Origin: a bacterium
Lineage (GTDB): Bacteria > UBP7 > UBA6624
Length of the DNA: 32,000 nucleotides
Direction of reading: 5' to 3'
Assembly (NCBI GenBank): GCA_002716355.1
Contig: PBAU01000011.1
Coordinates: 56,114-88,113, forward strand
The position numbers and the translations under genes are program-made. Shown piece by piece: positions 5,866 through 32,000 of the stretch. The stretch's first letter is position 1. Every line of letters starts with the position of its first letter. Under the pieces are notes generated by a model. That model was not told the origin of the DNA. It was given only the letters and a program-made list of their open reading frames with translations, and searched no databases.

Positions 5866-6153
5866 ATGTTTAGAAAGATTTTTTCTGGTGAAAGTTGGAA
5901 AGCTGAGAGTGATGAAGATTTTGCTTCAAACCTTGTAGATAACGGCCTAGGGGTTCCTTCAGTGTTTTTATTAGAGTTAGCAAAACCTTTGAACGTTTTG
6001 GCATCTTCGGCATTTACGGTTCTTTCACCAGTCGGACACTTGTTTTTCGATAGGGAAAAATGGGATGTTGTGCCGGATTTTTTTTCAGACAGGAAAAGAA
6101 TCGAAGATATGATAAATTCAATAGAAAAGGAATTAGCTGCTCATGAATCATAA
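5866..6153 (+). CDS. Hypothetical 95-aa protein, probable first gene of the uncharacterised operon
   Basis: The ORF overlaps the downstream ATPase gene by 11 nt (6143..6153). It has an acidic N-terminus, a central hydrophobic stretch VPSVFLLELAKPLNVLASSAFTVLSPVG and an acidic C-terminal helix. I recognised no family. Confidence 0.5.
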   Translation: MFRKIFSGESWKAESDEDFASNLVDNGLGVPSVFLLELAKPLNVLASSAFTVLSPVGHLFFDREKWDVVPDFFSDRKRIEDMINSIEKELAAHES

Positions 6154-7921: not shown

Positions 7922-7925
7922 ATTT

Positions 7926-18102: not shown

Positions 18103-19373
18103 TGTCATTTTTTCAAGATCTTTCACTTTCAGGAATTGAAATTTTGACACCTTTAGTTTTGTTATTTTTTTCTGCCTTTTTCTCATTTGCTGAAGCTGCA
18201 ATTTTTGCAATATCAAGTACAGAATTGGCTTCAAAGAAAAATTCAGCTGCGAATGTTTTAAAAAAAATGGTATCAGACCCAGAGCAACTTTCAATGTGTT
18301 TAATGGTTGGTTACAACCTTGCGAATATAAGTTTAGCTTTATTGGTAACCCAATATGTTATGTCTTTTACATCTGGACTTGATAACCAAAAAATAATTCT
18401 GGGAGCAGTTGCTCTTTTTAATTTTTTTATTGTTACAACTTTTGGAGAAATTGTTCCCAGGTTATTGGCAATTAAGAAACCTTACGAAGCTGCATTGAGA
18501 TTTGCTCATGTTTTGTATTTTTTCACAATTATTTTAAAAATACCTGCTTTCATTATTAAGCATGTAAATAATATGTTTTTAAAAATGATGAAAGTTCCAG
18601 AACTTAGCGAAGGTAAAACAATTGAGAGAGAGGTCCAATCTTTGGCAAGTGATGAGGTTTTTGCAGAAAGTGTAGAGGATGATGAGGTAGAAATGATTCA
18701 AGGGGTTTTAAATTTGGAAGATTTAAATGTTAAAGATGTTATGGTCCCTCGTGTTGAGGTAGATGCATTAGAAAAATCTTTAAAGCTTAAAGAGGTTTTT
18801 GAACTTGTTGCAAGAAAATTCAGAAGTCGTTATCCTGTTTATAACGAAAGAATTGATAGTGTGATTGGGATTCTTCATGTTAAGGACATATTGGGAGAAA
18901 ATCCTAATAATTCAGTTGAAAAATATATAAGAAATGCTTTGATGTTTGCACCAAACATGCCTTTGGATAATGCTTTTAAGTCAATGAGAAACAATCGTAA
19001 ACATTTAGCTATAGTTTTAGATGAGTATGGGGGAATGGATGGCATTGTAACTGTTGAGGATTTACTTGAAGAGGTTGTTGGTCAAATAGAGGACGAATAC
19101 CAACTTGAAGATCCTGATTTGGTTGAGGTAAATGAAGATTTATTAATCGTAAGGCCAGCCTCAAGGGTGGCTGAGGTTATGGATTCGTTAGATTTACCAT
19201 GTATTGATCCTCCTGCACAACAGGTTGGACCACTTGTATACAAGGTGCTTGAAAGAGTCCCTAAAGAAAATGATGTTGTTAAATGGGGAGGCGCTATTTT
19301 CAAAATTGTTGACATGGATGGAACCCAGATAAAAAGACTTGAAATTCTCAAAAATAGCGAGGATGCAGAATGA
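18102..19373 (+). CDS. CNNM/TlyC/CorC-family protein (DUF21 membrane domain + CBS pair + CorC_HlyC C-terminal domain)
   Basis: The N-terminal DUF21-type helices include GEIVPRLLAIK. The CBS region contains VKDVMVPRVEV and IGILHVKDIL, followed by HLAIVLDEYGGMDGIVTVEDLLEEVVGQIEDEY, the family's signature. A C-terminal beta domain runs to residue 424. Confidence 0.8.
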   Translation: MSFFQDLSLSGIEILTPLVLLFFSAFFSFAEAAIFAISSTELASKKNSAANVLKKMVSDPEQLSMCLMVGYNLANISLALLVTQYVMSFTSGLDNQKIILGAVALFNFFIVTTFGEIVPRLLAIKKPYEAALRFAHVLYFFTIILKIPAFIIKHVNNMFLKMMKVPELSEGKTIEREVQSLASDEVFAESVEDDEVEMIQGVLNLEDLNVKDVMVPRVEVDALEKSLKLKEVFELVARKFRSRYPVYNERIDSVIGILHVKDILGENPNNSVEKYIRNALMFAPNMPLDNAFKSMRNNRKHLAIVLDEYGGMDGIVTVEDLLEEVVGQIEDEYQLEDPDLVEVNEDLLIVRPASRVAEVMDSLDLPCIDPPAQQVGPLVYKVLERVPKENDVVKWGGAIFKIVDMDGTQIKRLEILKNSEDAE

Positions 19374-20332
19374 CTCTTTCTTTAGCAATTTTATTTATAT
19401 TGATCTCAGGATGGTTTACAGGTTTGGAAATTGCTCTACTTCAAACTGACAAAGTTGAATTATCAAACAACACCAAAGAAGATTCTGGCTTTAAGAATTT
19501 GTTCGACTGGATGTCCAATTCTTCTAAATTGTTTACAACAATATTGTTAAGTATTAATTTTTCAAATCAGATTGCTGCTGCAATTTTTTCTTACTTTATT
19601 TATGTCAATCTTTTAACGGATGAAAGAGTCTATTTAAACTTGATATTCACAGTAGTGATATTAATTTTTGCTGAAGGTCTTCCAAAAATGTGGGCTATCC
19701 GCAGTTCAAATGTTTTTATTAAAGGCGCTAATGCAAGTTTGAAAGTTTCTAATTATTTATTAGCACCTTTTATAACCTTCTTCTCCTTTCTGCCTAAAAG
19801 AATGAAAATGGATTCAAAAGGCTTGATCCGGGTTTATAAAATTCAAAGAAAAGAAATTATCAATATTACAGACAGAGCAATGGAAGAAAAAATTATGACT
19901 GATGAGGTTAAAAGGATACGAGGAGTTTTATCGCTTGGTGAAAAAACTGTTAGATCATGCATTGTTCCCAAAGATGAAATCACCGTTCTTGGTCCTGATA
20001 TGAAATTGGATGATGTTGTAGATGTGATTAAAAAAACTGGACACAGCAGAATACCATTTTGTTTTAATGATTTAGATGATTCAAGGACTTACCTACATGC
20101 TAAATCGTTATTTAAATTGAAAAAAGAAGAAGATTGGAAAACAGTTTTAAAACCACTTGTACGTTTGAAAAGTAATACTTATTTGGATGACGCAATGGAT
20201 TCAATGAAGAAGGGTGGTGGAATTGCCATAGTGGAAACAAAGACACAAACCTTAGGTGTTGTTTTTCTTGAGGATATACTTGAATTTGCCGTTGGTAAAA
20301 CTGCTGATGAGTATGATGAGAAACTGAATTGA
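19370..20332 (+). CDS. Second DUF21 + CBS-pair protein (CNNM-like), apparently lacking the CorC_HlyC C-terminal domain
   Basis: ATGA overlap with the previous gene. DUF21-like helices include AEGLPKMWAIR. The CBS region has VRSCIVPKDEI and a signature-like GIAIVETKTQTLGVVFLEDILEFAVGKTADEYD. The protein ends shortly after that motif, at 320 aa. Confidence 0.65.
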   Translation: MTLSLAILFILISGWFTGLEIALLQTDKVELSNNTKEDSGFKNLFDWMSNSSKLFTTILLSINFSNQIAAAIFSYFIYVNLLTDERVYLNLIFTVVILIFAEGLPKMWAIRSSNVFIKGANASLKVSNYLLAPFITFFSFLPKRMKMDSKGLIRVYKIQRKEIINITDRAMEEKIMTDEVKRIRGVLSLGEKTVRSCIVPKDEITVLGPDMKLDDVVDVIKKTGHSRIPFCFNDLDDSRTYLHAKSLFKLKKEEDWKTVLKPLVRLKSNTYLDDAMDSMKKGGGIAIVETKTQTLGVVFLEDILEFAVGKTADEYDEKLN

Positions 20333-21143: not shown

Positions 21144-21959
21144 ATGAACACAGAATTAATTTTCATTATTGTTTTTGCATGTTTTGGAAGTTTTTTAAAT
21201 GTTGTTATACATCGATATTACTCAAAAGAAAGTGTAATTTTCGGTTCATCTCATTGTCCTAAATGTAAATACAAAATAAAATGGTTTGACAATATTCCAA
21301 TAGTTTCTTGGCTTTTTCTTCAAGGTAGATGTAGAGCTTGCAAAAAGCCTATATCTTTTATTTATCCAATAGTGGAGATTTTATGTGCTTTTATAGGTTA
21401 TTCTTTGTTTTTCTCTGCAGATCATTTTTTTATTTCAGGTTATAAGCATGATTGGAGCTTATCAATTGCGTTATTATCTTTTTTTGTTTTTTGTGGATTT
21501 TTGGTCATTACTTTTATAGATTTGAAATCAAAAATAATTCCTCATAGGTTTTTAATATTTTCAGGTCTGAATGTATTTTTTATTCATTTTCTTACCGGGA
21601 ATAAAAGTGATTCGTTTATGGATGGCTTGATTGGAATGTTTACCTTGGCTGTATCTCTTGCAGGTGTTTTATGGATTGGAAGCTTGATGTTGAAAAGAGA
21701 TGCAATGGGTTGGGGTGATGTGAAGATGGCGCTTGTCATAGGTTTTTTGTTAGGTTTGAATTTTGGGTATGTTGCTATCTTTACAGCAATTTTCACAGGA
21801 GCTGTTTTTGGATTGTTGATGATGGCTTCTAAAAAAATGAAAAATCAAAATTATAGAAATTTAGAAATGCCATTTGGCCCTTTTCTAGCTTTAGGAACAT
21901 ACTTAACTTTTCTTTATGGCCCAAAATTAATTAATGATTTTTTTTCTATCCTGTCTTAA
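21144..21959 (+). CDS. pilD: Prepilin peptidase / N-methyltransferase (peptidase A24)
   Basis: The N-terminal four-Cys motif CPKC...(21 aa)...CRAC lies within SHCPKCKYKIKWFDNIPIVSWLFLQGRCRACKKPISFIYPIVE. The catalytic Asp contexts are ITFIDLKSKIIP and AMGWGDVKMA. The protein is polytopic. ATG at 21144 (MNTELIFIIVF...) is preferred over the track start at 21090, which overlaps the previous gene. Confidence 0.85.
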   Translation: MNTELIFIIVFACFGSFLNVVIHRYYSKESVIFGSSHCPKCKYKIKWFDNIPIVSWLFLQGRCRACKKPISFIYPIVEILCAFIGYSLFFSADHFFISGYKHDWSLSIALLSFFVFCGFLVITFIDLKSKIIPHRFLIFSGLNVFFIHFLTGNKSDSFMDGLIGMFTLAVSLAGVLWIGSLMLKRDAMGWGDVKMALVIGFLLGLNFGYVAIFTAIFTGAVFGLLMMASKKMKNQNYRNLEMPFGPFLALGTYLTFLYGPKLINDFFSILS

Positions 21960-22045
21960 ATACTTACGTATTTAAAAAATATCATGTTTTGAAAATATGC
22001 TTTATACTTTATAGGTTTGAATGAATTTGATTCAAATGTAAAAAA
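21960..22045 (+). promoter_or_regulatory. AT-rich 86-bp gap upstream of the pseudopilin operon; weak sigma70-like candidate
   Basis: This is one of very few non-coding gaps in the window. TTGAAA (21989-21994), a 17-nt spacer and TAGGTT (22012-22017) make a poor -10. TATACT at 22003-22008 is a better -10 hexamer but has no good -35 partner. This is a weak hand call. Confidence 0.25.
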
Positions 22046-23077
22046 ATGAAAAAGTTTAATAGTCGAATCAAAAAAGGCTTTACGCTTGCTGAAATGCTTG
22101 TTGTGCTTGCGATTGTTGGCATACTGATAACAATCAGCCTTCCAGCAGTTGCCCAAGGTAACCATAGAAGAAAATTTGATTCTTATTCAACAAAAATATT
22201 AGGTGATTTAAGGTGGGCCTTTAATGAATCAAGCGCAAAAGGTGAAGAGTTGGTTCTTGAGATTGTTGGCTTTTATCACAATCAGACAAACACAGGACAC
22301 CCCTTTCCATTAGAAGATGTAATAAGGGTTTGGAAAAAGAAAGATTGGGAAAAATATTTAGATCTTTCAATGCATAAAAGTCCAAATAGTAATTTTGATC
22401 TTGAATTTGCAGCTCCTTACTTGGTTTATGACCTTTCTGAAAGTTCTAATTTAAATGAAAATAGCTGTTTCTTGGATGGTACTGATGCAGCTTCTAATCT
22501 TGTCGATTGTGACTATGTTATCAGCGAGGATGAGCTCCCAGTTCCTCTGAGGGAATATGTTAAAGAGGATTACAAGGATCCTCCTATGTTGCTTGAGTTG
22601 CCTGAATATCAAGCTGTTTTAACAAGTAAAAAATTTAAAAGAATTAGGAATATACCTAGGGAAATTGATTTAATTGCCCCATTTGTAGATCAGTCTTTTT
22701 ACGATGGTAGCGGTTTGGTAGATTATGAGAATTTGATTTCTTATGCAGTCATAAGACCTGAAGGCAATGCAGAAAGTTCTACAGGTGTTTTAACTTTTGC
22801 TTTCATGTTGAAGCCAGAGTATTTCACTGAAAGAATTTTGAGCCTTGCAAACAATAAAACTGAAAATTCATCACGTTTCAAGTGTGCAATGGAGGCAAAT
22901 TTACAGAGCAAGTCCAATGGTAGGACCGTACAATTAATGCTTTCTAGTGGGGGGGTCAGAATCACAGAGGCATCTCCAACTGAATACATGGATCCAAATA
23001 GGGAATCTTCATGTAATACTTCAATTCCAGATGCAGAGTGGTCTTTAGATTTTGACAGGGGAACAGGTTGGAAATGA
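22046..23077 (+). CDS. Prepilin-type protein, GspH/FimT(FimU)-like minor pseudopilin, enlarged (343 aa)
   Basis: Class III signal peptide MKKFNSRIKKG|FTLAEMLVVLAIVGILITISLP with Glu at +5. The following RRKFDSYSTKILGDLRWAFNESSAKGEELVLEI resembles the GspH/FimT N-terminal pattern. It lies immediately downstream of the prepilin peptidase gene. Confidence 0.7.
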   Translation: MKKFNSRIKKGFTLAEMLVVLAIVGILITISLPAVAQGNHRRKFDSYSTKILGDLRWAFNESSAKGEELVLEIVGFYHNQTNTGHPFPLEDVIRVWKKKDWEKYLDLSMHKSPNSNFDLEFAAPYLVYDLSESSNLNENSCFLDGTDAASNLVDCDYVISEDELPVPLREYVKEDYKDPPMLLELPEYQAVLTSKKFKRIRNIPREIDLIAPFVDQSFYDGSGLVDYENLISYAVIRPEGNAESSTGVLTFAFMLKPEYFTERILSLANNKTENSSRFKCAMEANLQSKSNGRTVQLMLSSGGVRITEASPTEYMDPNRESSCNTSIPDAEWSLDFDRGTGWK

Positions 23078-24516
23078 AATTTAAAAAAGGTTTCACGCTT
23101 GTTGAGCTCCTTGTAGGGATAAGCATTTTGATTTTGGTTCTATTGCCTGTCCTTACAGCAATTGGACGAACTGTTAACAGAAGTGAGCAGAGCCAATCGA
23201 TGAATCAAGCATTAAACCTTGCTGAAGAGCGCATCAGTTCTTTAGAGGCTCATCTGAGTTCAGCTTGGTATCCAGGTGGTATACCTTTTGATTTTGAAGG
23301 CGGAAGCACGTTAACTGATGATCCTGTTGACATTGCAAATGACCCTGAGTTAAATGAATATCTTCCAGGAAACTGGTTTAGGGGACAGCAAGAAAATCAA
23401 AGAGGCGAGATCGCGCTTTACATGGAGCCTTCTTATTATGGGTGTGATAACCAGAATGCCATTGGATCTGAAGATGAAGATAGATATCTTAATGACAATA
23501 TGCATATTTGCATTAATCCTTATAATCCAAACAATTTGACAAATGAAGATGGGGTTGATTTGTCCAATGAAAAATATAGAGTTGCGATGGCTTTATTTGC
23601 AGCAAGGATGGATCCAATTGATGCTTTAGGTATATACATGCCTGAGCTGCATCCGGAATCATTCAGATTTAACAATTCAGATACTTGCAATACTAATTTT
23701 GATGGGGATTGCCCAAGAATCGATGGAATAGAGGATTTTGGAGAAATTGTAGATAAGGCATTTTTCGAAGAATCTTCTGACTTCACTTGTTTTGGCGCTA
23801 TTGATGGTCATGTTGGGAGAAATTGGTTTGATTTTGGTTATATTGCATCACCTTTTGATAATGAATCATTTTCTGACAATATTGCCTGGCCAAATTATTT
23901 AAGCTATTGGAGGATGATTGCTGCTGCTGGGGTTACCAGAGCAAATCCAGATCCCACAGATGATAACAGGAATGAATGTGCCTTGAATCCAAATCAATCT
24001 GTGTCTGAAATTTCATCAAAAATTGCTAATTCCTTGGGAACTTTTCAGAAGTTCAGGCGTGAAACACAGATCTCAACTGTTTATTTTCCTGGTGGAGGAA
24101 GAGATTTAACTGAGGTTATCGATCCTCAGGATGCGAGATACTATAGATCTTCAGAAGGTGTTTTGGGAAGATTAGTTCGAGTCTCGGTTGTTTGGAGAGC
24201 AGGAGAGGGTTGCTCTTCAAATAATAATCCTTCTAGCCAAGGTTTGTTTTCAAGATGTTCTGATCCAATTGCAAGTATACGTAGGCAATTGAGTTTAAGT
24301 GATTCAAATATTAATTTAAGAAGTAAAGTTTCATTAAACAAAGGTGTAGAGCTTAGAAAGTTTATACCTGATCCAGACCAGGATCCTTGTGACAGCATGT
24401 TGCAATTACTTGGTCCTTTAGGAGAGAAAACAAGCAGGTTGTCAGGAGCTTTGCATGATGGAGATCCGACAAATGCTTCAAATGTATTTGAAGAATGTTG
24501 GTATAAGGATTCATAA
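23074..24516 (+). CDS. Prepilin-type protein, PilV/GspI-like minor pseudopilin, enlarged (about 480 aa)
   Basis: MKFKKG|FTLVELLVGISILILVLLPVL with Glu +5, then QSQSMNQALNLAEERISSLEA, the PilV/GspI-like helix. ATG at 23074 makes an ATGA overlap with the upstream stop; the track start is TTG at 23068. The remainder is an Asp/Asn/Gly/Pro-rich region with several Cys. Confidence 0.7.
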   Translation: MKFKKGFTLVELLVGISILILVLLPVLTAIGRTVNRSEQSQSMNQALNLAEERISSLEAHLSSAWYPGGIPFDFEGGSTLTDDPVDIANDPELNEYLPGNWFRGQQENQRGEIALYMEPSYYGCDNQNAIGSEDEDRYLNDNMHICINPYNPNNLTNEDGVDLSNEKYRVAMALFAARMDPIDALGIYMPELHPESFRFNNSDTCNTNFDGDCPRIDGIEDFGEIVDKAFFEESSDFTCFGAIDGHVGRNWFDFGYIASPFDNESFSDNIAWPNYLSYWRMIAAAGVTRANPDPTDDNRNECALNPNQSVSEISSKIANSLGTFQKFRRETQISTVYFPGGGRDLTEVIDPQDARYYRSSEGVLGRLVRVSVVWRAGEGCSSNNNPSSQGLFSRCSDPIASIRRQLSLSDSNINLRSKVSLNKGVELRKFIPDPDQDPCDSMLQLLGPLGEKTSRLSGALHDGDPTNASNVFEECWYKDS

Positions 24517-24531
24517 ATGGAGGTTGTAAAA

Positions 24532-25632
24532 ATGAAAAAAGGTTTTACATTGACTGAATTATTGGTCGTAATAGTAATTATTGGGATTCTGATTACATTA
24601 GTGGTCCCAAGTGTTACAAAAGCAAGAAATAAAGCTAAGGAAGCTCAGGTTAAAGCAGGTATTCATGATATTGAAGTTGCTTTAAGCTCTTTCTCTGCTG
24701 GAAATTCTGGATGGTATCCTGGTGTTGGATACGATCCAAGCGGTACACAATCATTGCAATCAAGCATGTTGGGCATTGCAGGAAGATCCGGAATATCAAT
24801 TCCTGATGGTGGGGAAATCATTTCAAGTGGTGTTGTAGGAGGGAGAATGGATTGCATGGTTGATCCTAGAAAATGCGGAAGTGAAACCCCTAGTGAAAAT
24901 AAATATTTAGATGATTATTGGAGATGGGACAGGCTTTATTTAGAAGGTGTTTTAGATGAGTATCCAACAAACCCCTTTAGCAGTGCTAAAGCTGGAAATT
25001 CAAGTGTAAAAAGAGGTATGCATAATATATTTGTAGTTTCAGTTTTGCCAGTTTCCGGTACAGGTGGGCCAGATTTCATCGGTACATGTTTATCTAAGCC
25101 AGCTGGAGAGGCTGAAGCGTTTGCTGGCGGTGGAAATTGGTACAGTTATGAAAATTACAACACTGTTAACGGAAGATTGTCTTATGGTTGGGATGATGCA
25201 AGTACTTCAACGCCTGCTGTTTGTAATGCTGTTACGGGTGATGATAATAACTCCTGGGAAGAGACACCCACTCTTTACCCTAGAGGTGATTTTGCATACA
25301 TACCTTTAGATTCTGTTGATAAGCGAATGTTCACAGATTCAAGTGGTAATTTGGCTAATGGTGAATATATGGCTTTTGTTGAAAATTATTGGATTATTGG
25401 ATATGGAGCAGAATCTGCTTGGAAATCAGATATTTTCAATGTTGATTCTCTTGCTTCAGGAAATAATTGTGGCTTGAAGTTCCAGCAACCTTTAGGTAGG
25501 ATTGACCCTGCTTCAACCGCATCTTTTTTAAACTGTACGCCAACTGAATATGAGAACAGAGTTCTCGAAGCCTTAAGAGGTGCAATTTTATTGCAGGGAA
25601 CTGCATATACAGAGCAGGCTTTTAGCGAGTAA
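24532..25632 (+). CDS. Prepilin-type protein with a GspG / major-pilin-like N-terminal region and a roughly 300-aa C-terminal extension
   Basis: MKKG|FTLTELLVVIVIIGILITLVVPSVTKARNKAKEAQVKAGIHDIEVALSSFSAGNSGWYPG follows the GspG pattern (..AR..A....A..DL..I..AL..Y..D.G.YP). GGAGG at 24519-24523 lies 8 nt upstream of ATG 24532 and supports that start over ATG 24517. Confidence 0.7.
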   Translation: MKKGFTLTELLVVIVIIGILITLVVPSVTKARNKAKEAQVKAGIHDIEVALSSFSAGNSGWYPGVGYDPSGTQSLQSSMLGIAGRSGISIPDGGEIISSGVVGGRMDCMVDPRKCGSETPSENKYLDDYWRWDRLYLEGVLDEYPTNPFSSAKAGNSSVKRGMHNIFVVSVLPVSGTGGPDFIGTCLSKPAGEAEAFAGGGNWYSYENYNTVNGRLSYGWDDASTSTPAVCNAVTGDDNNSWEETPTLYPRGDFAYIPLDSVDKRMFTDSSGNLANGEYMAFVENYWIIGYGAESAWKSDIFNVDSLASGNNCGLKFQQPLGRIDPASTASFLNCTPTEYENRVLEALRGAILLQGTAYTEQAFSE

Positions 25633-25635
25633 TTT

Positions 25636-27147
25636 ATGATTTTTTACAGTAAAAGATCAGGTTTCACGATGACTGAATTATTAGTATCCATAGCGATACT
25701 TGTTGTCGTGATGACACTTTTGCTGACAGTTATAGAGTCAACTTTTAAAACTTTAAGAGTGGTTACTGGTGAGTCAAATGCTTCTAATCGTGCCAGAATT
25801 GCAATGGATCAAATCGTTGCAGAATTGAGCAATGTTGATGATATGGGTTTTGTTGATTTTCATATTCCTAGAATCAAAAAATCAAGATCTCAATATGTTG
25901 CTGGTTTACAAAATGCTGCAAGTGCTGGATGTGACATTTATTTAGAATTACATCCTAGCGATACAGCTTTTAGAAATGTTCCGTACCCAGATTCAACTCT
26001 TTTTAACCAGGATCTAAATTACAACTGCTACATTGAACCTTGGGAAGTGATGGATCCAGATCCAACATGGACTTCAAGATTCTCTGAAGGGGGTGGAAGC
26101 TCTGATGCTCCTGCTTATTGCAATCAGTATTTAGCACCTGGTGTTTTGGCAATGGAGTCATCTTCAGGTCTTTCTTGCAATGGAGGATCTTGTCGAATCG
26201 GGTTGAATGACAGGAATCTTAATCCTGATGATCGTATGGCTGCAAATGATCCTTTTGAAAGTTGGAGGTCTGAAGTAGACCAATTGAAACCTTCATGGAG
26301 TGAGCTTTTTGGTCAAATGTGTCAAGAAGACATTGATGCAAGTGGATTTATTACAACTCATAATTTAACACCTTATATAACTTCTAGGGAGGATCTAGAT
26401 GGCAATGGCACAATTAATGGACAAGAAGAGTTTTTAAGGACGATTGTTTTTAAAACCAAAAGTCCAACATACTCTTCAAATGCAGCTTCAAACACTCCTA
26501 ATCTAGCTGGTGCATTAAATTCCAATAATAGTGTCGAACAGCTTTCACATAGAGTTGTAACTTTTGCTCACACATGGAAAGAAAAAGCCTTTTCCATACC
26601 ATTAACGGATAGTTTTGATGGGGGTTGTAACCCTTCTAACTATTCTCATCTTTCTTCTGATTTTGTCTTATACAAAAGAGAATCTAATTTTTATTCCGAT
26701 CCTATCTTGAATATGGATCTTGATAGAGATGGCAATCCTAGTGAAGAAATTGAGGATGAATGTTTGAGAACAGTGGAAACCCCTGTTACTGATGGGGTTG
26801 TAGATGTAAGGTTTAAATTAATTGATTCTAGAGGTGATGAAATCAATGCAGGTAACCAGTATTATTATTGGTTTGACAGGGATCCTAGTGACAACAATCC
26901 TATTAGCCCTCCTATCACAGCATTGGATGCGGTTAGAGCAATTGAAGTTTATATCTTGACTGCAAGTGATGATGTGATTTCAGTATTAAGAAGTTCTATG
27001 GATGATGGCAAACTTTTCAGCATTACAAGTGGCAACCCTGGTGAGTTAGCACGATTGAATTTCTTGAGGATACAGAGTTTGCAACCTGAAATTTACAATC
27101 CAAATAATTTTGTTCAACTGAGGAGAAAGGTCAACCTCTATGAATAA
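25636..27147 (+). CDS. Prepilin-type protein, PilW/GspJ-like minor pseudopilin, enlarged (503 aa), with EF-hand-like loops
   Basis: MIFYSKRSG|FTMTELLVSIAILVVVMTLLL with Glu +5, then SNASNRARIAMDQIVAELSNV, a GspJ/PilW-like helix. The loops DLDGNGTINGQE and DLDRDGNPSEEI lie in the large Asp/Asn-rich C-terminal part. Confidence 0.65.
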   Translation: MIFYSKRSGFTMTELLVSIAILVVVMTLLLTVIESTFKTLRVVTGESNASNRARIAMDQIVAELSNVDDMGFVDFHIPRIKKSRSQYVAGLQNAASAGCDIYLELHPSDTAFRNVPYPDSTLFNQDLNYNCYIEPWEVMDPDPTWTSRFSEGGGSSDAPAYCNQYLAPGVLAMESSSGLSCNGGSCRIGLNDRNLNPDDRMAANDPFESWRSEVDQLKPSWSELFGQMCQEDIDASGFITTHNLTPYITSREDLDGNGTINGQEEFLRTIVFKTKSPTYSSNAASNTPNLAGALNSNNSVEQLSHRVVTFAHTWKEKAFSIPLTDSFDGGCNPSNYSHLSSDFVLYKRESNFYSDPILNMDLDRDGNPSEEIEDECLRTVETPVTDGVVDVRFKLIDSRGDEINAGNQYYYWFDRDPSDNNPISPPITALDAVRAIEVYILTASDDVISVLRSSMDDGKLFSITSGNPGELARLNFLRIQSLQPEIYNPNNFVQLRRKVNLYE

Positions 27148-30100
27148 TTCAAGAAAATCTGGTGTAGCTTTAGTTACTGTTTTGATTTTTCTTGCATTGG
27201 TTTTACCTGCATTAGTTATTATTTTAAGTTTTGCAAGAAATGAAATAGAGTTTGGTTCTCTTGATTGGGAAAGAAAACAATCTGATCAAATGAGTAAATC
27301 AGGTTTGGACATAGCTGAAAATATGCTTAATACTGGTTTTGCATCATTGAACCAACCAATATTTAGATTCCCAATGGATAAGGATCAAAATGGTACTTTG
27401 GATGATATTGATGGCGATTTAACCTTAGACGAATGGGCTTATGCTTTTCCTTTTTCTACAATTAGCCACCTTTCATCACCATGGATCAAGTATCCCGTAT
27501 TATCAAATGAAACTTGGTTTTCTAGAGATTTAGTTAGTCTTTCTGGTTTTTCAACAGCTCAATTGAACAGACCTGCGGGAAGCTTGCCGGTTTACCCACT
27601 TTTCAAAGACAAGAATAACACTGGTTTTGTTGATTATTCTTCCTATGAGCATTCAGAATATGATTATTTCGATCCATCATTTGGTTGTGCTGAAAATACA
27701 ACATCTTCCTGGGAGCCTAAGCCATGTTTGATAATGTCTTTTATCCCATTTGGGAAAAAAACAGAAACATCACCAGTTCCTTCGGCAACTTTAGACATCA
27801 ACAATTCTGATTTTATGTGGAATGGAAATCCTTATAGTTCAAACAATTCTTACAATCCTGCCCAGTTAAGAAATCAAACTTTTGTATCTGATTGGAGTTA
27901 TAACCATGCTATTACTGGAGACAGAGATAAAACTACTGCTCATATTCCATCAAATTTTCCATCATTGGGTTCTGAGATATTTAACCCTTATGCAGATAGA
28001 CTGAAAGCACAACTTTCAAACTGTAACCCGAGTCAGGATGAATTTTTTGTAAGGGATTTATTTTTAAGTTCCTCAGGCATGACTTACCCTTTGCAGTTAG
28101 ATAAATCTTATGAAAACGAAACAGAATCAAGGGTTAATTTTGGATTACCTAATATGCCTGATTCCTATGTTATGTTTGATCCAAGAACATGTATGCCTTT
28201 GTATGCTTCACAAGCAAAGGATGTTGATGGTGGGTATGAGGTTGTTGTTTCAGATGAAGGGGCAAGGTTTCCCTTGTATGGTTTCTTGCACAATCCCGAT
28301 GATCCGTCTTTTAATAACCCAATGCTTCTTGAGTCTGTCAATGGCTTGGGAGGTAATTTTACCATTGTAGATGAAACCAGTTTTATACCAAGGATGACTG
28401 GTTCAAATGTAGATGAAAAAGGGGAATTTGCACATCTTGCTCAAAGGGGGATAGTTTCTTTATTAGCACCTTTTCATAGAAATGATTACAACACTGGTCA
28501 TGCTGCAGCAATGATTTCATACATAGGCTTTAATGATGTTGGAGATATATCATCATTACCTGATGCTGTATGCCCAAAAGGCAATTGTCCAGATGGGGAA
28601 AGGTTTGGTTTAGGTTTTGAGAAACCTTTAAATTGGCCTGAAGGGTTAAAGGATATACTTGATGTTGACGGTATAAAACTTAGGGATGGTTTGGATTCAA
28701 GTTTTAAAATCAATGATAAGAACTGGAAAGACATTCAAGCTAGGGTTTCCCTGCATTCAACTCCTCAGGAAAGATCGACCATTAACATACAGGGAAACGC
28801 TCTAAACGATCCAAGATTTATCTTTTATCCATTTATTGATTCCAGAGCGACTCCTGAGATGGAGGATCCTGTTTTAAGGTGCAGGGATTCAGATTCTGAT
28901 GATTTTTGTCGTTCAAATTCTGGTTTGTTTAAGGTTGATTTATGGCAAACGCCAACCAGTTGGCCAACCGGATCCTCTTCAGATCCAGTTTCAAATGTTT
29001 TATCTACATCTATCAATATGGATTCTGCGGATTGGGTTTCAAGCGGTTGTTCTTCAAGGTTTCAAAACATAGGCGATATAAATGATTATTTTTCATTACT
29101 GGGTAGAGGAAATGCACCTGCGGGATTTTCATCATCAGATTTAAGGCATTCTGTTTGGCCAGAAGAGTTTTATTGGTTTATTAATTGTTTTTGGAAAAGT
29201 GATATTAGGAATGAGTTAGTAGATAAAAAAGATGAAATAGAAGCAGTTTTAAGGGAATTCTTTCATCAAAATGGATCTTTGAAGAATATATGGAGAACAG
29301 ATCCATTTGATGATTTTCCCGACTTGATATCTGAGAAAATTGTTGGCCATTGGGCTGCATGGCAATATTTTTATCGATATTTTGATGATGAGGATGATTG
29401 TAGGGATATTTCTCCAGAATTCAATCTTGATGATTCATCTTCAATTACAACAAATGTTGGCAACCCGCAAGTTTTGCTTGCAGAAAGGCATGCAAGATAT
29501 CATGGTCCAGCCGATTTAGGAATGCCTATTGGAAATGTTAGGGATATGCTTGGGTCAACTTTGATACCCTATCCGGAAATGAACGGTCCTTTTTGGGATC
29601 CTGGAAATGTCGGTTCTAACTCGAATCCAGGTTGTGGTCTTACATCTCTCGACGGTGATGATTTTCCAGATATGACAACGAACATTCCAATACAACATTC
29701 AGGAGGAGTGGTTGCTAACGTTAATGTCAATATTGAGAAATTGAATGTCATGCCCGCTGTCTGGATTCCCAATAGTAGACCGTCTTTCTATAGTGAGGAC
29801 CCACCTTATGATGATTTTGATTTTGGAGCTAGTGAACCTGTTTCTGGTTGGCCAATTTACGATCCCTTGGGCTTTGACAGCAGGAATAAGGGTTTGGGTA
29901 ACTCAAATCAATCTTTTATAAACAGAAGAGATGATTCGCTTATCTTGCACCTGATTAGCTCTGTTGCGTTTTTTGATAGTCCTTATGCAACTTATTTTGA
30001 TGATCCGCACATAAACGAACCCTGCTTAGTTTCAGATGATTTTTTTGATCCGATAGTGGGTGCTTCAAATGGTACTACTGATCCTTGGGACAATGTATTA

Positions 30101-31006
30101 GGAGCAGGAGGATCTTTAACTACTATGGACCTCAATGCAACCTTTGGCGGTTGGTGGGAGGCTGATGGCAGGAATATAGGTTCTTTTGATGACAGTGATT
30201 GCAATATTGATGATCCAACCACAGATATTGGCTTTACACCTCTTGAATGGAGACCTTTAAAAACTAGAGGAAGAGTGAACATAAACACAGCTGCGTTTGA
30301 TGTTTTGCATGCAGCTTTTGCCAAGGTGTGTGATTTTAATAATGGTATAGGCATTGACATTTTCAATAATTCTTGTGGATCTTTGCCATCAGTAATTGCA
30401 TCAATCTTGAACTATCGCGAATATTACTATTCTGATCCAAATCAGCCCTTTGATGATATAAGTTCCCATGGGACTTTGTTTTCATGGTTGCCTAATGGAG
30501 TGGCTTTATACGGCGGAAGTTTTATTGAGCAGTTTTTCAATGATATAAATTTATACACAACTGGTGATTGCAGAAACGGAAGTTCTAACGGTACCAGCTG
30601 TGCTCTTCAGAATACAGATGACATATTATGGGATTGGCATACTGGAGAATGGAGTAATAATGGCTTGAATAAGATTCCTTTCAGAACAATAACCCAGTTG
30701 TTAGATCTTTCAGATGGTGTAGATCCAAGAAACTTAAACTTGAGCTCAAGAAGACTCTTGTCTGTCGATGATATAGCAAACAACAGCAATGGTGCTATTG
30801 CCGTTTTAGCAAGAATAGATCAGGATTTTTCAGTATTCAGCCAGGGTTACAGAATTGAAAGCATGGGTAGTTATGGTAGAGCAAATAGCACTCTATTCAA
30901 AATCTTGGGTTTAGATGGAAACTTAAACCTTACAGTTTTTGAAGAAGAAAAGTCTGGAGGAACGGATGATTCCTTCGGTTTATATTTTGGAAGTTATTAC
31001 AAATGA
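27140..31006 (+). CDS. Giant (1288 aa) GspK/PilX-like pseudopilin, candidate tip or adhesin subunit
   Basis: The N-terminus MNNSRKSGVALVTVLIFLALVLPALVIIL matches the GspK-type (R/K)G.AL..VL pattern with no Glu at +5. The C-terminal RGRVNINTAAFDVLHAAF matches the GspK (I/V)N(I/V)NTA helix-hairpin-helix motif. About 1000 residues of Asp/Asn/Ser/Pro/Trp-rich sequence with about two dozen Cys lie between them. It overlaps the upstream gene by 8 nt. Confidence 0.65.
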   Translation: MNNSRKSGVALVTVLIFLALVLPALVIILSFARNEIEFGSLDWERKQSDQMSKSGLDIAENMLNTGFASLNQPIFRFPMDKDQNGTLDDIDGDLTLDEWAYAFPFSTISHLSSPWIKYPVLSNETWFSRDLVSLSGFSTAQLNRPAGSLPVYPLFKDKNNTGFVDYSSYEHSEYDYFDPSFGCAENTTSSWEPKPCLIMSFIPFGKKTETSPVPSATLDINNSDFMWNGNPYSSNNSYNPAQLRNQTFVSDWSYNHAITGDRDKTTAHIPSNFPSLGSEIFNPYADRLKAQLSNCNPSQDEFFVRDLFLSSSGMTYPLQLDKSYENETESRVNFGLPNMPDSYVMFDPRTCMPLYASQAKDVDGGYEVVVSDEGARFPLYGFLHNPDDPSFNNPMLLESVNGLGGNFTIVDETSFIPRMTGSNVDEKGEFAHLAQRGIVSLLAPFHRNDYNTGHAAAMISYIGFNDVGDISSLPDAVCPKGNCPDGERFGLGFEKPLNWPEGLKDILDVDGIKLRDGLDSSFKINDKNWKDIQARVSLHSTPQERSTINIQGNALNDPRFIFYPFIDSRATPEMEDPVLRCRDSDSDDFCRSNSGLFKVDLWQTPTSWPTGSSSDPVSNVLSTSINMDSADWVSSGCSSRFQNIGDINDYFSLLGRGNAPAGFSSSDLRHSVWPEEFYWFINCFWKSDIRNELVDKKDEIEAVLREFFHQNGSLKNIWRTDPFDDFPDLISEKIVGHWAAWQYFYRYFDDEDDCRDISPEFNLDDSSSITTNVGNPQVLLAERHARYHGPADLGMPIGNVRDMLGSTLIPYPEMNGPFWDPGNVGSNSNPGCGLTSLDGDDFPDMTTNIPIQHSGGVVANVNVNIEKLNVMPAVWIPNSRPSFYSEDPPYDDFDFGASEPVSGWPIYDPLGFDSRNKGLGNSNQSFINRRDDSLILHLISSVAFFDSPYATYFDDPHINEPCLVSDDFFDPIVGASNGTTDPWDNVLGAGGSLTTMDLNATFGGWWEADGRNIGSFDDSDCNIDDPTTDIGFTPLEWRPLKTRGRVNINTAAFDVLHAAFAKVCDFNNGIGIDIFNNSCGSLPSVIASILNYREYYYSDPNQPFDDISSHGTLFSWLPNGVALYGGSFIEQFFNDINLYTTGDCRNGSSNGTSCALQNTDDILWDWHTGEWSNNGLNKIPFRTITQLLDLSDGVDPRNLNLSSRRLLSVDDIANNSNGAIAVLARIDQDFSVFSQGYRIESMGSYGRANSTLFKILGLDGNLNLTVFEEEKSGGTDDSFGLYFGSYYK

Positions 31007-31012
31007 AAAACA

Positions 31013-31041
31013 TTGACTTTTCTTCACTAAAAAGGTACGAT
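31013..31041 (+). promoter_or_regulatory. Candidate sigma70-type promoter for the secretin-like gene
   Basis: TTGACT (31013-31018), a 17-nt spacer and TACGAT (31036-31041) lie in the 114-bp gap after the GspK-like gene. A purine-rich AAGGGGG (31105-31111) lies 9 nt upstream of ATG 31121 and is a likely Shine-Dalgarno sequence. Confidence 0.3.
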
Positions 31042-31120
31042 TGTGGGGTTGTAATTTATTTAATATGAAAGCAATTTTTAACAAAAAAATATTCTTCGCC
31101 AATTAAGGGGGCAATTTATT

Positions 31121-32000
31121 ATGAAAATAAAACTATTTTTATTAACTTTAATTTTTTCAATTTTCACTTCAGGGCTTAACGCTTCTTATCTGGAAGATAA
31201 GACTGCTGTCCGTTGGACAATATCTGAAGATGAAACTTTTATCACTCTTTTTGTGGACACTCCAGTTGCTGTCACACATAAAAATGAAGTGTATCCAACA
31301 AGGCTTGTTTTTAACATTCCTGGTGGTTACATGGACGAAGGAGAAGATGAAAAAACAATACAGTGGAACGGAGCTGAAAAGAGTTTTGTAAAAGAAATCA
31401 AAGCCGTTTCTATAGATCCAAAGTTTGAGGACTCCTTTTTAAGGTTGGTTTTTACTTTTGGGATAAGGGTTCCAATAAGCACAGAGCTTGGTGAAGATTA
31501 TCAATATTACAGAATTTCTCCTACAAGATACGCTTTTGTTCTAAATAAAAATAGATTGAACTGCAAGCATGAAAATTATTTAGCTGCACAACAGGATAGG
31601 GAAAATGAAATTGTTGAATGTGAATTAGTTGTTTTTCCTGAGTCGGCACCTGAAGCTAGAGAAAATGTAAGGATATGGACTGATGTTTCAGGATCTCCAC
31701 AGGATGTTGTCAATGAATTGGCAGACAAAGCAGGATTGAAGGTTGATTTTGATGCAGCTTTTTCTGATGCTGAAAATTGGACACTTACAGCAGAAGGTGG
31801 AACATTAGGTGAACTACTTTCCTCTTTAGAACAGGAAGAAGGTATAGTTTGGAATATTTCTGAAGGTGTTTTGACAATTTCTGATAATTCTGAATTATTA
31901 ATGGCTCAAGCAGAGGCTGCAAGGATCGCTGCTGAGGAAGAGGCTGCTCGAATAGCTGCTGAGGAAGAGGCTGCAAGGATCGCTGCTGAGGAAGAGGCTG
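31121..32000 (+). CDS. Secreted protein with AMIN-like and STN/N0-like domains; probable N-terminus of a PilQ/GspD-type secretin (partial, runs off the right edge)
   Basis: Absent from the ORF track because it has no in-window stop. My translation: MKIKLFLLTLIFSIFTSGLNASYLEDKTAVRWTISEDETFITLFVDTPVAVTHKNEVYPTRLVFNIPGG... (signal peptide, then an AMIN-like beta domain) ... VRIWTDVSGSPQDVVNELADKAGLKVDFDAAFSDAENWTLTAEGGTLGELLSSLEQEEGIVWNISEGVLTIS (STN / secretin N0-like) ... AARIAAEEEAARIAAEEEAARIAAEEEA. The position after the pseudopilin operon fits a secretin. The secretin domain itself would lie outside the window. Confidence 0.5.
   Translation, partial: MKIKLFLLTLIFSIFTSGLNASYLEDKTAVRWTISEDETFITLFVDTPVAVTHKNEVYPTRLVFNIPGGYMDEGEDEKTIQWNGAEKSFVKEIKAVSIDPKFEDSFLRLVFTFGIRVPISTELGEDYQYYRISPTRYAFVLNKNRLNCKHENYLAAQQDRENEIVECELVVFPESAPEARENVRIWTDVSGSPQDVVNELADKAGLKVDFDAAFSDAENWTLTAEGGTLGELLSSLEQEEGIVWNISEGVLTISDNSELLMAQAEAARIAAEEEAARIAAEEEAARIAAEEEA
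31916..32000 (+). repeat. In-frame 27-bp tandem repeat (at least 3 units, truncated by the window edge) encoding AARIAAEEE
   Basis: Units at 31916-31942, 31943-31969 and 31970-31996. Units 1 and 3 are nucleotide-identical (gctgcaaggatcgctgctgaggaagag). Unit 2 differs only at synonymous positions (gct cga ata for gca agg atc). Confidence 0.9.

Follow-up and report, generated by a model that had tools for sequence, protein, structure and literature searches.

The minor-pilin operon of Pseudomonas, fimU-pilVWXY1E, includes a PilA-like minor pilin, PilE, and major pilin genes often stand alone. A further pilin-like gene set, the uncharacterised Verru_Chthon cassette of Verrucomicrobia (proteins A-D; TIGR02596/02598/02599/02600), has some large members. 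The FimU-PilVWXE set has been named in earlier work (PMC5979040). PilK homologs form the cap at the tip and invariably lack Glu5; where PilY1 is absent they supply the last strand themselves, in cis, and a large adhesin region can intervene, CpaL with its ~600 aa being an example (PMC13533445). In the modular pilins of Raynaud et al. 2021, the pilin module is joined via a linker to an independently recognisable extra domain, a definition under which unrecognised modules would be missed; the largest modular pilin in the InterPro survey has 860 aa (PMC8179133). Surveyed major T4a pilins (n=1,955) span 42-297 aa with a mean of 141 (PMC11046646). The GspG, H, I, J and K proteins of E. coli K-12 have 145, 169, 125, 195 and 327 aa, respectively. 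Here we analyse a locus from an uncultured marine diderm bacterium. It probably encodes the pilins, tip complex and outer-membrane portion of a machine resembling the type IVa pilus; the five pilins are oversized, with one (P5) read as the cap and another (P3) favoured as the shaft.

Layout of the locus and its five enlarged pilins

The window (the whole stretch of DNA analysed, 32,000 nt) carries at 21144-32000 a prepilin peptidase gene, five closely spaced pilin genes (P1 to P5) and the 5' part of a secretin gene. The features are as follows (arrow, predicted cleavage site):

21144..21959, + strand: prepilin peptidase (PilD/GspO type), 271 aa; Pfam A24_N_bact and Peptidase_A24
22046..23077, + strand: P1, pilin in the FimU/GspH position, 343 aa (332 aa mature); leader ...KKG↓FTLAEM; 4 Cys
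23074..24516, + strand: P2, pilin in the PilV/GspI position, 480 aa (474 aa mature); leader MKFKKG↓FTLVEL; 10 Cys
24532..25632, + strand: P3, GspG/PilA-like pilin, 366 aa (362 aa mature); leader MKKG↓FTLTEL; 6 Cys
25636..27147, + strand: P4, pilin in the PilW/GspJ position, 503 aa (494 aa mature); leader ...RSG↓FTMTEL; 8 Cys
27140..31006, + strand: P5, putative GspK/PilK-type cap pilin without Glu5, 1288 aa; leader ...KSG↓VALVTVL; 18 Cys
31121..32000, + strand: 5' part of a predicted PilQ-type secretin gene; signal peptide, AMIN-like N-domain and first AEEEAARIA repeats
31912..32000, + strand: 27-nt tandem repeat within the secretin gene, encoding AEEEAARIA units (TRF)

All ORFs at these coordinates are free of internal stops. 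Alternative starts would lengthen the peptidase to 289 aa (TTG at 21090) and P3 to 371 aa (an upstream ATG). The gaps between the genes from P1 to P5 are -4, 15, 3 and -8 nt, with P1 and P2 sharing 4 nt. The peptidase matched A24_N_bact with 107 bits (E=5e-31) and Peptidase_A24 with 48.6 bits (E=1e-12), and its gene is kept at the same place in all related loci. Directly upstream of the pilins, the locus is thereby predicted to encode an A24 prepilin peptidase, the cognate enzyme of the type IV pilin superfamily.

P1 to P4 each matched Pfam N_methyl (29.7, 24.1, 27.1 and 26.4 bits, respectively; gathering score 21.2) and have the cleavage sites KG↓FTLAE, KG↓FTLVE, KG↓FTLTE and SG↓FTMTE, identifying them by sequence as type IV pilins with class III signal peptides and Glu5. 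In P5 (SG↓VALVT) the leader and helix are present and Glu5 is absent; no N_methyl match was obtained for it in Pfam, as expected of a K-type subunit. The leaders are conserved across six lineages. These ORFs and matches confirm what had been read from the sequence alone, namely a peptidase followed by five genes with class III signals, four of the form G↓FT(L/M)xE and one of the GspK type without Glu5.

Compared with its canonical counterpart in E. coli K-12, each of the five pilins is 2-4 times as large, as the sequence-only reading had claimed in calling them hypertrophied, and the comparison with related genomes that it had proposed showed the sizes to be kept. At least five divergent lineages have the five-pilin set in similar sizes, with P5 identity as low as 21-26%, and across the six loci compared both lengths and leaders are retained at identities down to 21-37%. 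Orthologs of P1 have 319-377 aa and can be aligned over their full length, those of P2 478-519 aa, those of P4 484-541 aa and those of P5 1104-1529 aa (the longest in locus L018). Equal ORF lengths recur in >20 independent assemblies (TARA, JGI, ENA, NCBI), and the gene models are therefore very unlikely to split into smaller ORFs on resequencing. Because the same set and sizes are found in divergent lineages, we take the gene models to be sound and the large size to be ancestral. The enlargement is evidently old and lineage-wide rather than peculiar to one genome, the joint pattern of size and leader is hardly a product of chance, and the oversized-pilin design is kept in a few rare related lineages. 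We found no description of such a five-pilin design in the literature searched.

Family matches of P1 to P5 span the first ~60 residues only. The best NCBIfam match was GspH for P1 (31 bits, residues 10-73 only; cut-off 80), GspG for P3 (49.7 bits, residues 3-58; cut-off 88.85), Verru_Chthon cassette protein C for P4 (32.4 bits, N-terminal only) and GspK (NF037980) for P5 (21.7 bits, residues 7-65, model positions 2-60; cut-off 130), while P2 matched ComGE (31 bits) and GspI (23.9 bits; cut-off 44.35), again at the N-terminus only. No whole-protein score of the five reaches a curated NCBIfam equivalog cut-off. Since P4 has no GspJ match in NCBIfam, its 'J' label is one of position and size; N-termini aside, the H, I, J and K assignments generally follow gene order, size rank and weak motifs. 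Using hhalign, P3 aligned with E. coli GspG at 98% probability over 69 columns, and alignments to E. coli GspG, J and K covered the N-terminus only. For the bodies of P1 to P5, searches of Pfam, NCBIfam and PDB sequences detected no relatives: PDB matches of the P1 profile are pilin N-terminal helices only, those of P2 do not extend past the helix, and those of P4, like its hhalign matches, are confined to the N-terminus. No further Pfam or NCBIfam domain was found in any of the five, and the bodies are unrelated to one another. P4 has one DxDxDG-like motif, at residue 361. Recognisable similarity is, as had been noted, restricted to the N-terminus and a weak GspK motif. The earlier description of the bodies as rich in D, N, S and P with paired Cys also holds: they contain more of these four residues and less K than other proteins of the window, and Cys counts are even in all five (4, 10, 6, 8 and 18).

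P3 and P5 as candidate shaft and cap subunits

P3 is our favoured, but unproven, candidate for the main subunit of the filament shaft. Its N-terminus is the strongest of the five in GspG/PilA type, and its cross-lineage identity is the highest (37-51% vs 21-50% for the others). A strong Shine-Dalgarno site, GGAGGT, lies 7 nt upstream of its start and is conserved in most lineages. The P3 family comprises 172 matches across which the whole body of 340-420 aa is homologous, a size above the range of surveyed major T4a pilins; full-length homologs have 340-395 aa. Structure prediction with AF2 (pTM 0.75) gave a helix at 7-57 and five strands. With its long uncertain loops the model resembles a pilin head that has been enlarged, not a separate module grafted on. 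Helix plus sheet are pilin-like in outline, and the proposed Foldseek search returned no PDB match at E<0.001. The proposal that each subunit had gained a novel globular domain was not borne out, given the homology of the entire P3 body and the form of its model.

If P3 does form the shaft, it would outweigh every major pilin of known structure more than twofold. Scaled simply from the Myxococcus pilus (7 nm, 208-aa pilin), the filament would be ~9 nm wide, and either its helical packing would have to differ or it would have to pass in some unusual way through a secretin of ordinary size. This scaled width speaks against a P3 shaft, as the C-terminal domain of the secretin is of ordinary size.

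Alternatively, the five genes may encode a minor-pilin/tip set only, with P3 as a PilE-like adaptor and a small major pilin encoded elsewhere building the shaft, so that the tip alone would be oversized. We judge this rather unlikely. The gene of P3 is flanked by other minor-pilin genes, an arrangement unusual for a major pilin that would also suit a PilE-like adaptor, PilE being the PilA-like member of the Pseudomonas minor-pilin operon. The normal size of the secretin pore domain also fits a thin shaft made of a small pilin, and the range inspected was about 10 kb either side of each locus. Within that range, however, no smaller pilin gene was found in the 10 loci scanned, nor in L026/L027. 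In L018 the cluster runs pilB-pilT-pilC-pilT-pilD, five pilins, secretin, pilMN, and this full machine set is accompanied by no other pilin gene. P3 is moreover the most conserved subunit, with a strong ribosome-binding site, and distant P3-like pilins of the same size (350-390 aa) occur by themselves in tandem pairs, much as major pilin genes do.

The most fitting interpretation of P5 is a PilK-type cap that carries an insertion of about 900 residues and takes the place of PilY1. Glu5 is absent from all six P5 orthologs (consensus G↓V(A/V)L(V/L/I)(T/A/S)VL), so P5 agrees with GspK/PilK-type caps in this respect. Two GspK-like motifs are present, SDEGARFPL at residue ~371 and NINTA at ~1047, and compared with GspK the protein has about 900 extra residues. 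RGRVNINTA is invariant in the P5 family, which gave 15 matches among 1.84 billion representatives. In five distant relatives (L016, P0202, P0204, P0205 and P0206) the NINTA region aligned with GspK model positions 212-235 (E 0.008-0.08, always below cut-off), and the P5 of the window itself had no match to the GspK alpha-domain/'NINTA' signature (Pfam T2SSK; NF037980 ~212-235). The similarity of its C-terminal motif to E. coli GspK was judged by eye, and profile searches gave it no support. P5 had no PDB or Pfam match, and its AF2 model has a pLDDT of 24.7. From the by-eye similarity to GspK, the C-terminal strand of P5 would complete the pilin sheet in cis. No PilY1-like gene was seen in any locus examined.

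Taken together, we tentatively propose a type IV filament class that is structurally distinct and confined to a rare uncultured lineage, in which a shaft of the 362-residue P3 (340-390-residue homologs in relatives) would be capped by a 1288-aa PilK-type cap-adhesin fusion; this is plausible, short of probable.

Type of machine and proposed assembly

The part of the secretin gene in the window (31121-32000) encodes an AMIN-like N-terminal stretch only and has no Pfam match. The earlier label 'secretin-like' therefore stands through relatives, whose genes indicate that this is a PilQ-type secretin. In L004 a single continuous ORF encodes, in this order, the N-domain, the repeats, an acidic linker and the secretin N-domains. 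The C-terminal part in a close relative, L003, matched Secretin_N and Secretin (E=9e-38) with a C-terminal domain of ordinary size, and the L016 ortholog matched AMIN (22.1 vs 20.5 bits), Secretin_N and Secretin. The tandem repeat has a period of 27, 3.3 copies and 87% matches (TRF); contigs from many samples end in it.

Machine genes follow downstream in relatives. L003 has the secretin, PilM_2 (E=1e-22) and PilN; L016 has the AMIN-secretin, a PilM-PilN fusion (PilM_2 E=2e-32) and a PilO/T2SSM-like protein; L020 and L027 have the same downstream design. PilN in the relatives scored 22.7 bits against a cut-off of 22.8, with the FNLLPRE motif present, and PilO/T2SSM matches are weak (T2SSM E=0.004 in L016). 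It is correct that no PilMNOP genes lie between peptidase and secretin, yet predicted PilMNO genes do exist, after the secretin and past the window end. By domain content, relatives thus carry PilM, PilN, a PilO-like protein and an AMIN-secretin, as in a type IVa pilus. Genes for PilB, PilC and PilT are absent from the 32 kb window, in line with the earlier remark that no ATPase or platform gene is found between peptidase and secretin. In L018, PilB (MshEN+T2SSE), two PilT-like ATPases and PilC (T2SSF) are encoded immediately ahead of the peptidase gene and the set of five large pilins.

The locus had been labelled T2SS-like, and a type II or other non-retractile secretion-type filament would make the five proteins a periplasmic pseudopilus piston, GspG-H-I-J-K. 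The best NCBIfam names, GspH, GspI, GspG and GspK, are indeed those of pseudopilins. P5 has GspK-type motifs and the GspK of the T2SS holds its last strand in cis (PMC13533445), the PilM-PilN fusions of relatives resemble GspL, and the PilO-like protein has its weak T2SSM match (E=0.004). The machine parts are nevertheless of Pil type: a PilM_2 domain rather than GspL, an AMIN domain in the secretin, typical of PilQ, and two PilT-type ATPases with an MshEN-domain PilB in the L018 cluster. No GspC was seen, Gsp equivalog scores are all far under their cut-offs, and subunits of 360-1290 aa within the periplasm are hard to picture. We consider a secretion-type filament highly unlikely, and the T2SS label gives way to a T4aP-type machine. 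Inflation of the pilins by mis-assembled or mis-called ORFs (frameshifted fusions of smaller genes), which a metagenome assembly and contigs breaking in the adjoining secretin gene might suggest, is extremely improbable and effectively refuted, as the lengths recur across independent assemblies (TARA, JGI, ENA, NCBI) and, without internal stops, in proteins alignable over their full length at 21-50% identity.

In the type IVa-pilus-like machine that we prefer, assembly may be modelled on the PilH-I-J-K / GspH-I-J-K initiation complex. P2 (I-type) would pair with P4 (J-type), and the pair would recognise P5 (K-type). P5 would then cap the filament, its ~900 extra residues being exposed at the tip to serve as an integral adhesin or receptor. 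P1 (H-type) would join the base of the tip complex and P3 would polymerise below it. PilB, PilC and PilT, in this genome presumably encoded outside the window, would serve to push the filament out through the secretin and pull it back.

Comparison with known systems

Like the minor pilins of T4aP (FimU-PilV-PilW-PilX-PilE and PilY1 in P. aeruginosa; PilH-I-J-K and PilC in Neisseria), the locus combines four Glu5 pilins and one K-type pilin in one operon, presumably for pilus priming and capping, and shares PilD, AMIN-domain PilQ, PilM/N/O and, in L018, PilB/PilT/PilC. In contrast to these systems, the subunits are all larger by a factor of 2-4, PilY1/PilC is missing from the gene set, the genes run H-I-(G/E-like)-J-K, and sequence similarity ends with the N-terminal helix. 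The K subunit has 1100-1530 aa vs roughly 200-330 aa.

The T2SS pseudopilins GspG-H-I-J-K provide the best-scoring named families for the N-termini, and P5 resembles GspK in lacking Glu5, in its 'NINTA' motif and probably in a terminal strand in cis. The machine parts, however, are Pil-type (PilM_2, AMIN-secretin, PilT), the pilins are 2-4 times larger and the scores lie far below the equivalog cut-offs.

Similarly, P1, P2, P3 and P4 have N-terminal matches to Verru_Chthon cassette proteins C or D of up to 32.4 bits. These matches are confined to the N-terminus and miss all cut-offs of 70-256 bits (protein C, 32.4 vs 256.5 for P4; protein D, 28.4 vs 70 for P1), and P5 has no match to cassette protein A. 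No paper on this cassette was found in our literature search.

As in M. xanthus PilA (208 aa), an example of a large major pilin, a bigger C-terminal head sits on a standard alpha1 helix, with altered packing and stiffness as the underlying idea. Unlike PilA, the P3 family reaches 340-420 aa, and P3 is a candidate, not an established, major pilin.

At 1288 aa (up to 1529 aa in L018), P5 exceeds the 860 aa maximum for modular pilins in the InterPro survey. Unlike modular pilins, P1 to P5 have no recognisable added domain, which marks a failure of detection rather than proof of absence, and the body of P3 is conserved throughout its family as a single unit. The enlarged tip pilins (CpaL/TadG of C. 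crescentus, ~600 aa; T. thermophilus ComZ; S. sanguinis PilB/PilC; ETEC CofB) likewise join a pilin module to additional mass that is exposed at the filament tip. CpaL and ComZ have this addition between sheet and terminal strand, as is probably also the case in P5. Enlargement in these systems affects one or two subunits, whereas here it affects all five.

Gene content of the pilin locus

The locus at 21144-32000 holds seven genes, all in the same direction:

21144-21959: prepilin peptidase (Pfam A24_N_bact, E=5e-31; Peptidase_A24, E=1e-12)
downstream of the peptidase: five pilin genes, P1 to P5, encoding 343, 480, 366, 503 and 1288 aa, respectively
31121-32000: last gene, present as an N-terminal fragment only

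The pilin genes are spaced by -4, 15, 3 and -8 nt and therefore form an operon. P1-P4 score above the Pfam gathering threshold for the N-terminal methylation motif, with cleavage sites (marked |) at KG|FTLAE in P1, KG|FTLVE in P2, KG|FTLTE in P3 and SG|FTMTE in P4. The P5 site, SG|VALVTVL, precedes a hydrophobic helix that lacks the Glu at +5 (Glu5). The coordinates, lengths and class III leaders of the five-gene set placed after the peptidase by an earlier, sequence-only reading were reproduced here. The best NCBIfam names for the N-termini were GspH-like for P1, ComGE/GspI-like for P2, GspG-like for P3 (49.7 bits) and GspK-like for P5 (21.7 bits); P4 had no GspJ match in NCBIfam, its top match being 'Verru_Chthon cassette protein C'. 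All of these matches end at around residue 60 and lie far under the curated cut-off, in agreement with that reading, which had confined the recognisable part of each protein to the pilin N-terminus, a GspK C-terminal motif aside. Its description of Asp/Asn/Ser/Pro-rich bodies with paired Cys also held. The pilin bodies contain more Asp, Asn, Ser and Pro and less Lys than the rest of the window's proteins, and the Cys counts are all even (4, 10, 6, 8 and 18 in P1 to P5). The DxDxDG calcium-site motif was rejected as a defining feature since it occurs only once in P4 and once in P5. A promoter and terminator scan gave counts no higher than the shuffle expectation, and Rfam returned no matches.

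In the window clade, the region 5' of the locus carries phoH, an HD-domain gene, ybeY, two corC genes and a gene for an asparaginase. A pair of neighbouring CNNM/CBS (CorC/HlyC-type) paralogs (18099-20332; 424 and 320 aa) lies between ybeY and the asparaginase gene, an arrangement kept in all close relatives, just 5' of the pilus locus. Elsewhere in the window, a four-gene membrane-protein cassette is tandemly duplicated (9041-12133 and 12109-15174); its lead genes encode DUF6754 proteins, 56% identical between copies, and its remaining genes fall into no Pfam family. Upstream of the cassettes (6143-9044) lie a MutL/methylaspartate-mutase-like gene (PF13941, E=6e-130) and a gene encoding 372 aa with a biotin/lipoyl-like domain. 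An unusual large J-protein of 1023 aa is encoded at 2328-5399, with scattered TPR matches and a C-terminal DnaJ (J-domain) match of 25.8 bits, slightly under the Pfam cut-off of 27.8.

Pilin size and its conservation

GspG, GspH, GspI, GspJ and GspK of E. coli K-12 are 145, 169, 125, 195 and 327 aa long, and their counterparts P3, P1, P2, P4 and P5 exceed them by factors of 2.5, 2.0, 3.8, 2.6 and 3.9, respectively. The description of every pseudopilin as hypertrophied is therefore accurate, at 2.0-3.9 times the E. coli K-12 lengths. Mature major type IVa pilins range from 42 to 297 aa (mean 141 ± 25, n=1,955 surveyed), and the 208-aa PilA of Myxococcus has been termed 'unusually large' (PMC11046646), while the extreme case in a survey of modular pilins is an 860-residue protein (PMC8179133). 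Mature P3 has 362 aa; P5 has 1288 aa and reaches 1529 aa in the divergent lineage L018. Other machine parts are enlarged too: the secretin of relatives has 943-1144 aa, and PilM (465 aa), a PilN-like protein (312 aa) and a PilO-like protein (297 aa) are lengthened by extensions and Gly-rich tails.

The exact proteins recur in many independent assemblies (TARA, JGI, ENA and NCBI MAGs), where they are annotated only as 'hypothetical protein'. Relatives in which P5 is 73-89% identical have unchanged gene lengths, and remoter loci keep the five pilin genes in the same order at similar sizes.

Lengths of P1-P5 in divergent lineages, with identity of P5 to the window protein
L019 / L026 (P5 36-41% identical): 319, 500, 380, 484 and 1303 aa; the values 319 and 484 reflect gene-caller starts inside the leader, the mature proteins having 324 and 486 aa
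L016 / L020 (P5 25-32% identical): 362, 519, 383, 509 and 1210 aa
L027 (P5 26% identical): 353, about 500, 374, 468 and 1104 aa
L018 (P5 21% identical): 366, 496, 340, 541 and 1529 aa

Because the orthologs align over their full length, retain their leaders and contain no internal stops, these lengths cannot stem from mis-assembly, and large size is an ancient and conserved feature. The comparison of pseudopilin lengths in relatives proposed in the sequence-only reading thus returned similar sizes in divergent loci, and the splitting into smaller ORFs that it had named as counting against its gene models was not borne out, the same ORF lengths being found across assemblies and lineages. The family is also rare, given that an exhaustive HMMER search with P5 of 1.84 billion representatives found 15 matches (3 full-length) and a metagenome scan of 241 million records found only four loci. 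A word-indexed homolog search with a six-lineage P5 profile recovered the same three close clusters and nothing further.

Pilin bodies and the candidate shaft subunit

The P3 family comprises 172 matches; its full-length homologs have 340-395 aa and are 31-48% identical, and many remoter proteins have ~390-400 aa. Conserved blocks (WDRL..G.L..YP.NPF, GDFAYIP and IGYGA) are spread along the entire length of P3, so that its head is one conserved unit. An AlphaFold2 model built from 23 sequences (mean pLDDT 68.5, pTM 0.75) predicts an alpha1 helix (residues 7-57), five strands and a confident C-terminal region of ~120 residues, with ~100 residues of low-confidence loops that match the variable, gapped regions of the alignment. 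A Foldseek search of the PDB with this model had no match at E<0.001, the weak matches being to the helix alone. The P3 profile matched PDB sequences over its first ~60 residues only (Geobacter pilin, PilA and GspG), and hhalign aligned it to E. coli GspG over 69 columns with 98% probability. Likewise, six-lineage profiles of P1, P2 and P4 matched only pilin N-termini in the PDB, and in hhalign comparisons with E. coli K-12 GspG, GspJ and GspK, the family profiles aligned only at the N-terminus. In an all-against-all hhalign of the five pilins, only the N-termini matched. The bodies being unrelated to each other, they are five different elaborations, and one module grafted five times is rejected. 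No added domain was recognisable in the pilins, which places them outside the operational definition of modular pilins. A planctomycete DUF1559 (H-X9-DG) pilin-like identity was dropped, since the Pfam matches listed at E≤1 did not include PF07596.

Of the five, P3 has the N-terminus with the strongest PilA/GspG likeness, and it is the most conserved at every distance: it is 51, 42 and 37% identical to its homologs in L019 (P0007), L016 (P0008) and L018 (P0018), compared with 41-50, 31-33 and 21-27% for P1, P2, P4 and P5. The P3 gene has a strong ribosome-binding site in the window clade (GGAGGT, 7 nt upstream), L019 (AGGAGG) and L018 (GAGGT); a strong site is missing in L016. Neither in the complete L018 cluster nor in any other lineage was a smaller pilin gene found within ~10 kb. 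Distant uncultured bacteria also encode P3-like pilins (350-390 mature residues), as stand-alone tandem pairs far from pilus machinery, at these positions:

L017, 8413-12362: P3-like tandem pair
L021, 10001-12675: P3-like tandem pair
L022, 10001-12541: P3-like tandem pair

The neighbours of these pairs are housekeeping genes (tRNA synthetases, ClpXP and trigger factor), and stand-alone tandem pairs amid housekeeping genes are a typical setting for major pilin genes. This suggests that very large PilA-like pilins are more widespread than the present locus type.

Alternatively, P3 might be a PilE-like adaptor, as its gene lies amid minor-pilin genes. A P3 shaft would also be wide, at an inferred ~9 nm scaled from the 7 nm pilus of the 208-aa Myxococcus pilin, whereas the pore domain of the secretin is of ordinary length. 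A role for P3 as the shaft subunit is favoured by its N-terminus, conservation, ribosome-binding site and stand-alone relatives and by the lack of a smaller pilin nearby; set against the adaptor role, we give it about an even chance.

Machine type, the putative cap and known systems

The window fragment of the last gene has no Pfam match of its own. It ends in a 27-nt tandem repeat (31912-32000) coding for AEEEAARIA units in the secretin N-terminal region, and nearly all assemblies of the lineage end at this repeat, within the gene 3' of P5. The repeat is also present in the related loci L001 (13982-14956) and L004 (13978-15573), and the L019 relative has several long AEEEAARIA-type runs alternating with repeated ~70-aa domains. 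In L004, an uninterrupted ORF leads from an N-domain (~90% identical to the window fragment) through the repeats and a highly acidic linker to secretin N-domains. The C-terminal part in L003, a close relative, matches Secretin_N and Secretin (E=9e-38). The earlier designation of this gene as secretin-like is thus upheld by L003 and L004, although not by the window fragment itself.

The secretin of L003 is followed by PilM (PilM_2, E=1e-22) and a PilN-like protein, which carries an FNLLPRE motif and scores 22.7 bits for PilN (cut-off 22.8). Further genes there encode a bitopic protein of PilO size, a small membrane protein and a secreted protein of 228 aa. The PilN-like, PilO-like and 228-aa proteins bear long Gly-rich tails or loops of low complexity (GGGRGGGG...), and such stretches also lie between the secretin N-domains (L003 17710-20589; L018 17908-20739; L004 13978-15573), an uncommon feature in alignment proteins of the periplasmic part of a pilus. 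L016 encodes a 1026-aa secretin with an AMIN domain and a PilM-PilN fusion, which is followed by a protein with weak PilO/T2SSM matches. The ~700-aa PilM-PilN fusion is found in four divergent lineages (L016 16827-18923; L018 from 20880; L020 from 19878; L027 16911-19013), where it mimics the architecture of GspL of the type II secretion system (T2SS); the genes are separate in the window clade (L003 16308-18648). In L018, the peptidase and the five large pilins are directly preceded 5' by genes for PilB (MshEN+T2SSE, 602 aa), a PilT-like ATPase (370 aa), PilC (T2SSF, 407 aa) and another PilT-like ATPase. This motor-gene cluster appears decisive for the machine type. PilM_2, the AMIN-secretin and PilT together identify the machine as type IVa-pilus-like and not T2SS, which revises the T2SS-like label first given to the locus. 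The window has no assembly ATPase or platform genes, as had been noted, and the motor genes must presumably be placed elsewhere in this genome. PilMNOP genes are indeed missing between the peptidase and the secretin, but in relatives PilM, PilN-like and PilO-like proteins are encoded 3' of the secretin. Three divergent lineages (L003 20614-22560; L016 21337-22947; L027 21109-22719) have a gene for a NuoN-like antiporter-type membrane protein (Proton_antipo_M, 536-648 aa) directly 3' of the pilus locus, which suggests that the two are functionally linked or that the gene is a stable neighbour in the operon.

All P5 orthologs lack Glu5, and the P5 N-terminus aligns to positions 2-60 of the GspK model. 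The family has two invariant motifs, (S/T)DE(G/S)xRFP (around residue 371) and N(I/L)NTA (around residue 1047). The N(I/L)NTA region of five distant members matches GspK model positions 212-235 and Pfam T2SSK 1-22, singly weakly (E 0.008-0.08) yet always at the homologous place. Visual comparison lines up both motifs and the C-terminal segment (FSVFSQGYRIES) with E. coli GspK (RDAQHCFNLNAL, LSINLNML, FPYSRYFTLSTES); profile methods gave no confirmation of this alignment. The previously proposed GspK C-terminal motif is matched weakly in these five distant members. BLASTP of P5 against GspK found nothing, and profiles of the family and of its C-terminal region found nothing past the N-terminal helix among PDB sequences. 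An AlphaFold2 model of residues 89-1288 from 4 sequences was unusable (mean pLDDT 24.7). TolB/PD40-like propeller repeats, seen by eye in the 1529-aa L018 homolog, were dropped as Pfam gave no confirmation.

PilK homologs always lack Glu5 and sit at the filament apex (2026 study, PMC13533445). Their pilin sheet is closed by a final beta-strand, donated in trans by PilC/PilY1 or, without PilY1, provided in cis by the PilK homolog itself, as in T2SS GspK, the ~600-aa CpaL, whose middle region is dispensable, and the competence pili of Thermus and Vibrio (PMC13533445). No PilY1-like gene was found in any examined locus. Given this and the cis-strand mode of PilK homologs, P5 is best explained as a combined cap and adhesin: the ~150 residues between two anchors in GspK would have expanded to ~980 in P5, uniting both functions within a single polypeptide.

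Type IV filaments rank with the most widespread surface machines of bacteria, and pilin head domains set their mechanical and adhesive properties. The present locus type is real, conserved, unannotated and rare, and its mechanism is most likely the established one. It offers a test case for the upper subunit size tolerated by the PilC platform and secretin, for assembling a tip complex without PilY1 and for the use of a bulky filament by rare uncultured marine bacteria, attachment to particles or prey being one possibility. Functionally, it is a type IVa pilus-type system with a PilH-I-J-K-like initiation set. The open-access literature held no account of a system in which all pilins, the PilA/GspG-like one included, are this large. 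Unlike the Gsp pseudopilins of T2SS, P1-P5 fall below every curated equivalog cut-off. CpaL, ComZ, CofB and S. sanguinis PilB are individual large tip pilins, whereas here every pilin is enlarged, the candidate shaft subunit and the putative cap (1100-1500 aa) among them. Major pilins of moderately large size have been described, but the PilA/GspG-like P3 is larger, and the locus extends the known size range beyond the 297 aa of surveyed major pilins and the 860 aa of modular pilins.
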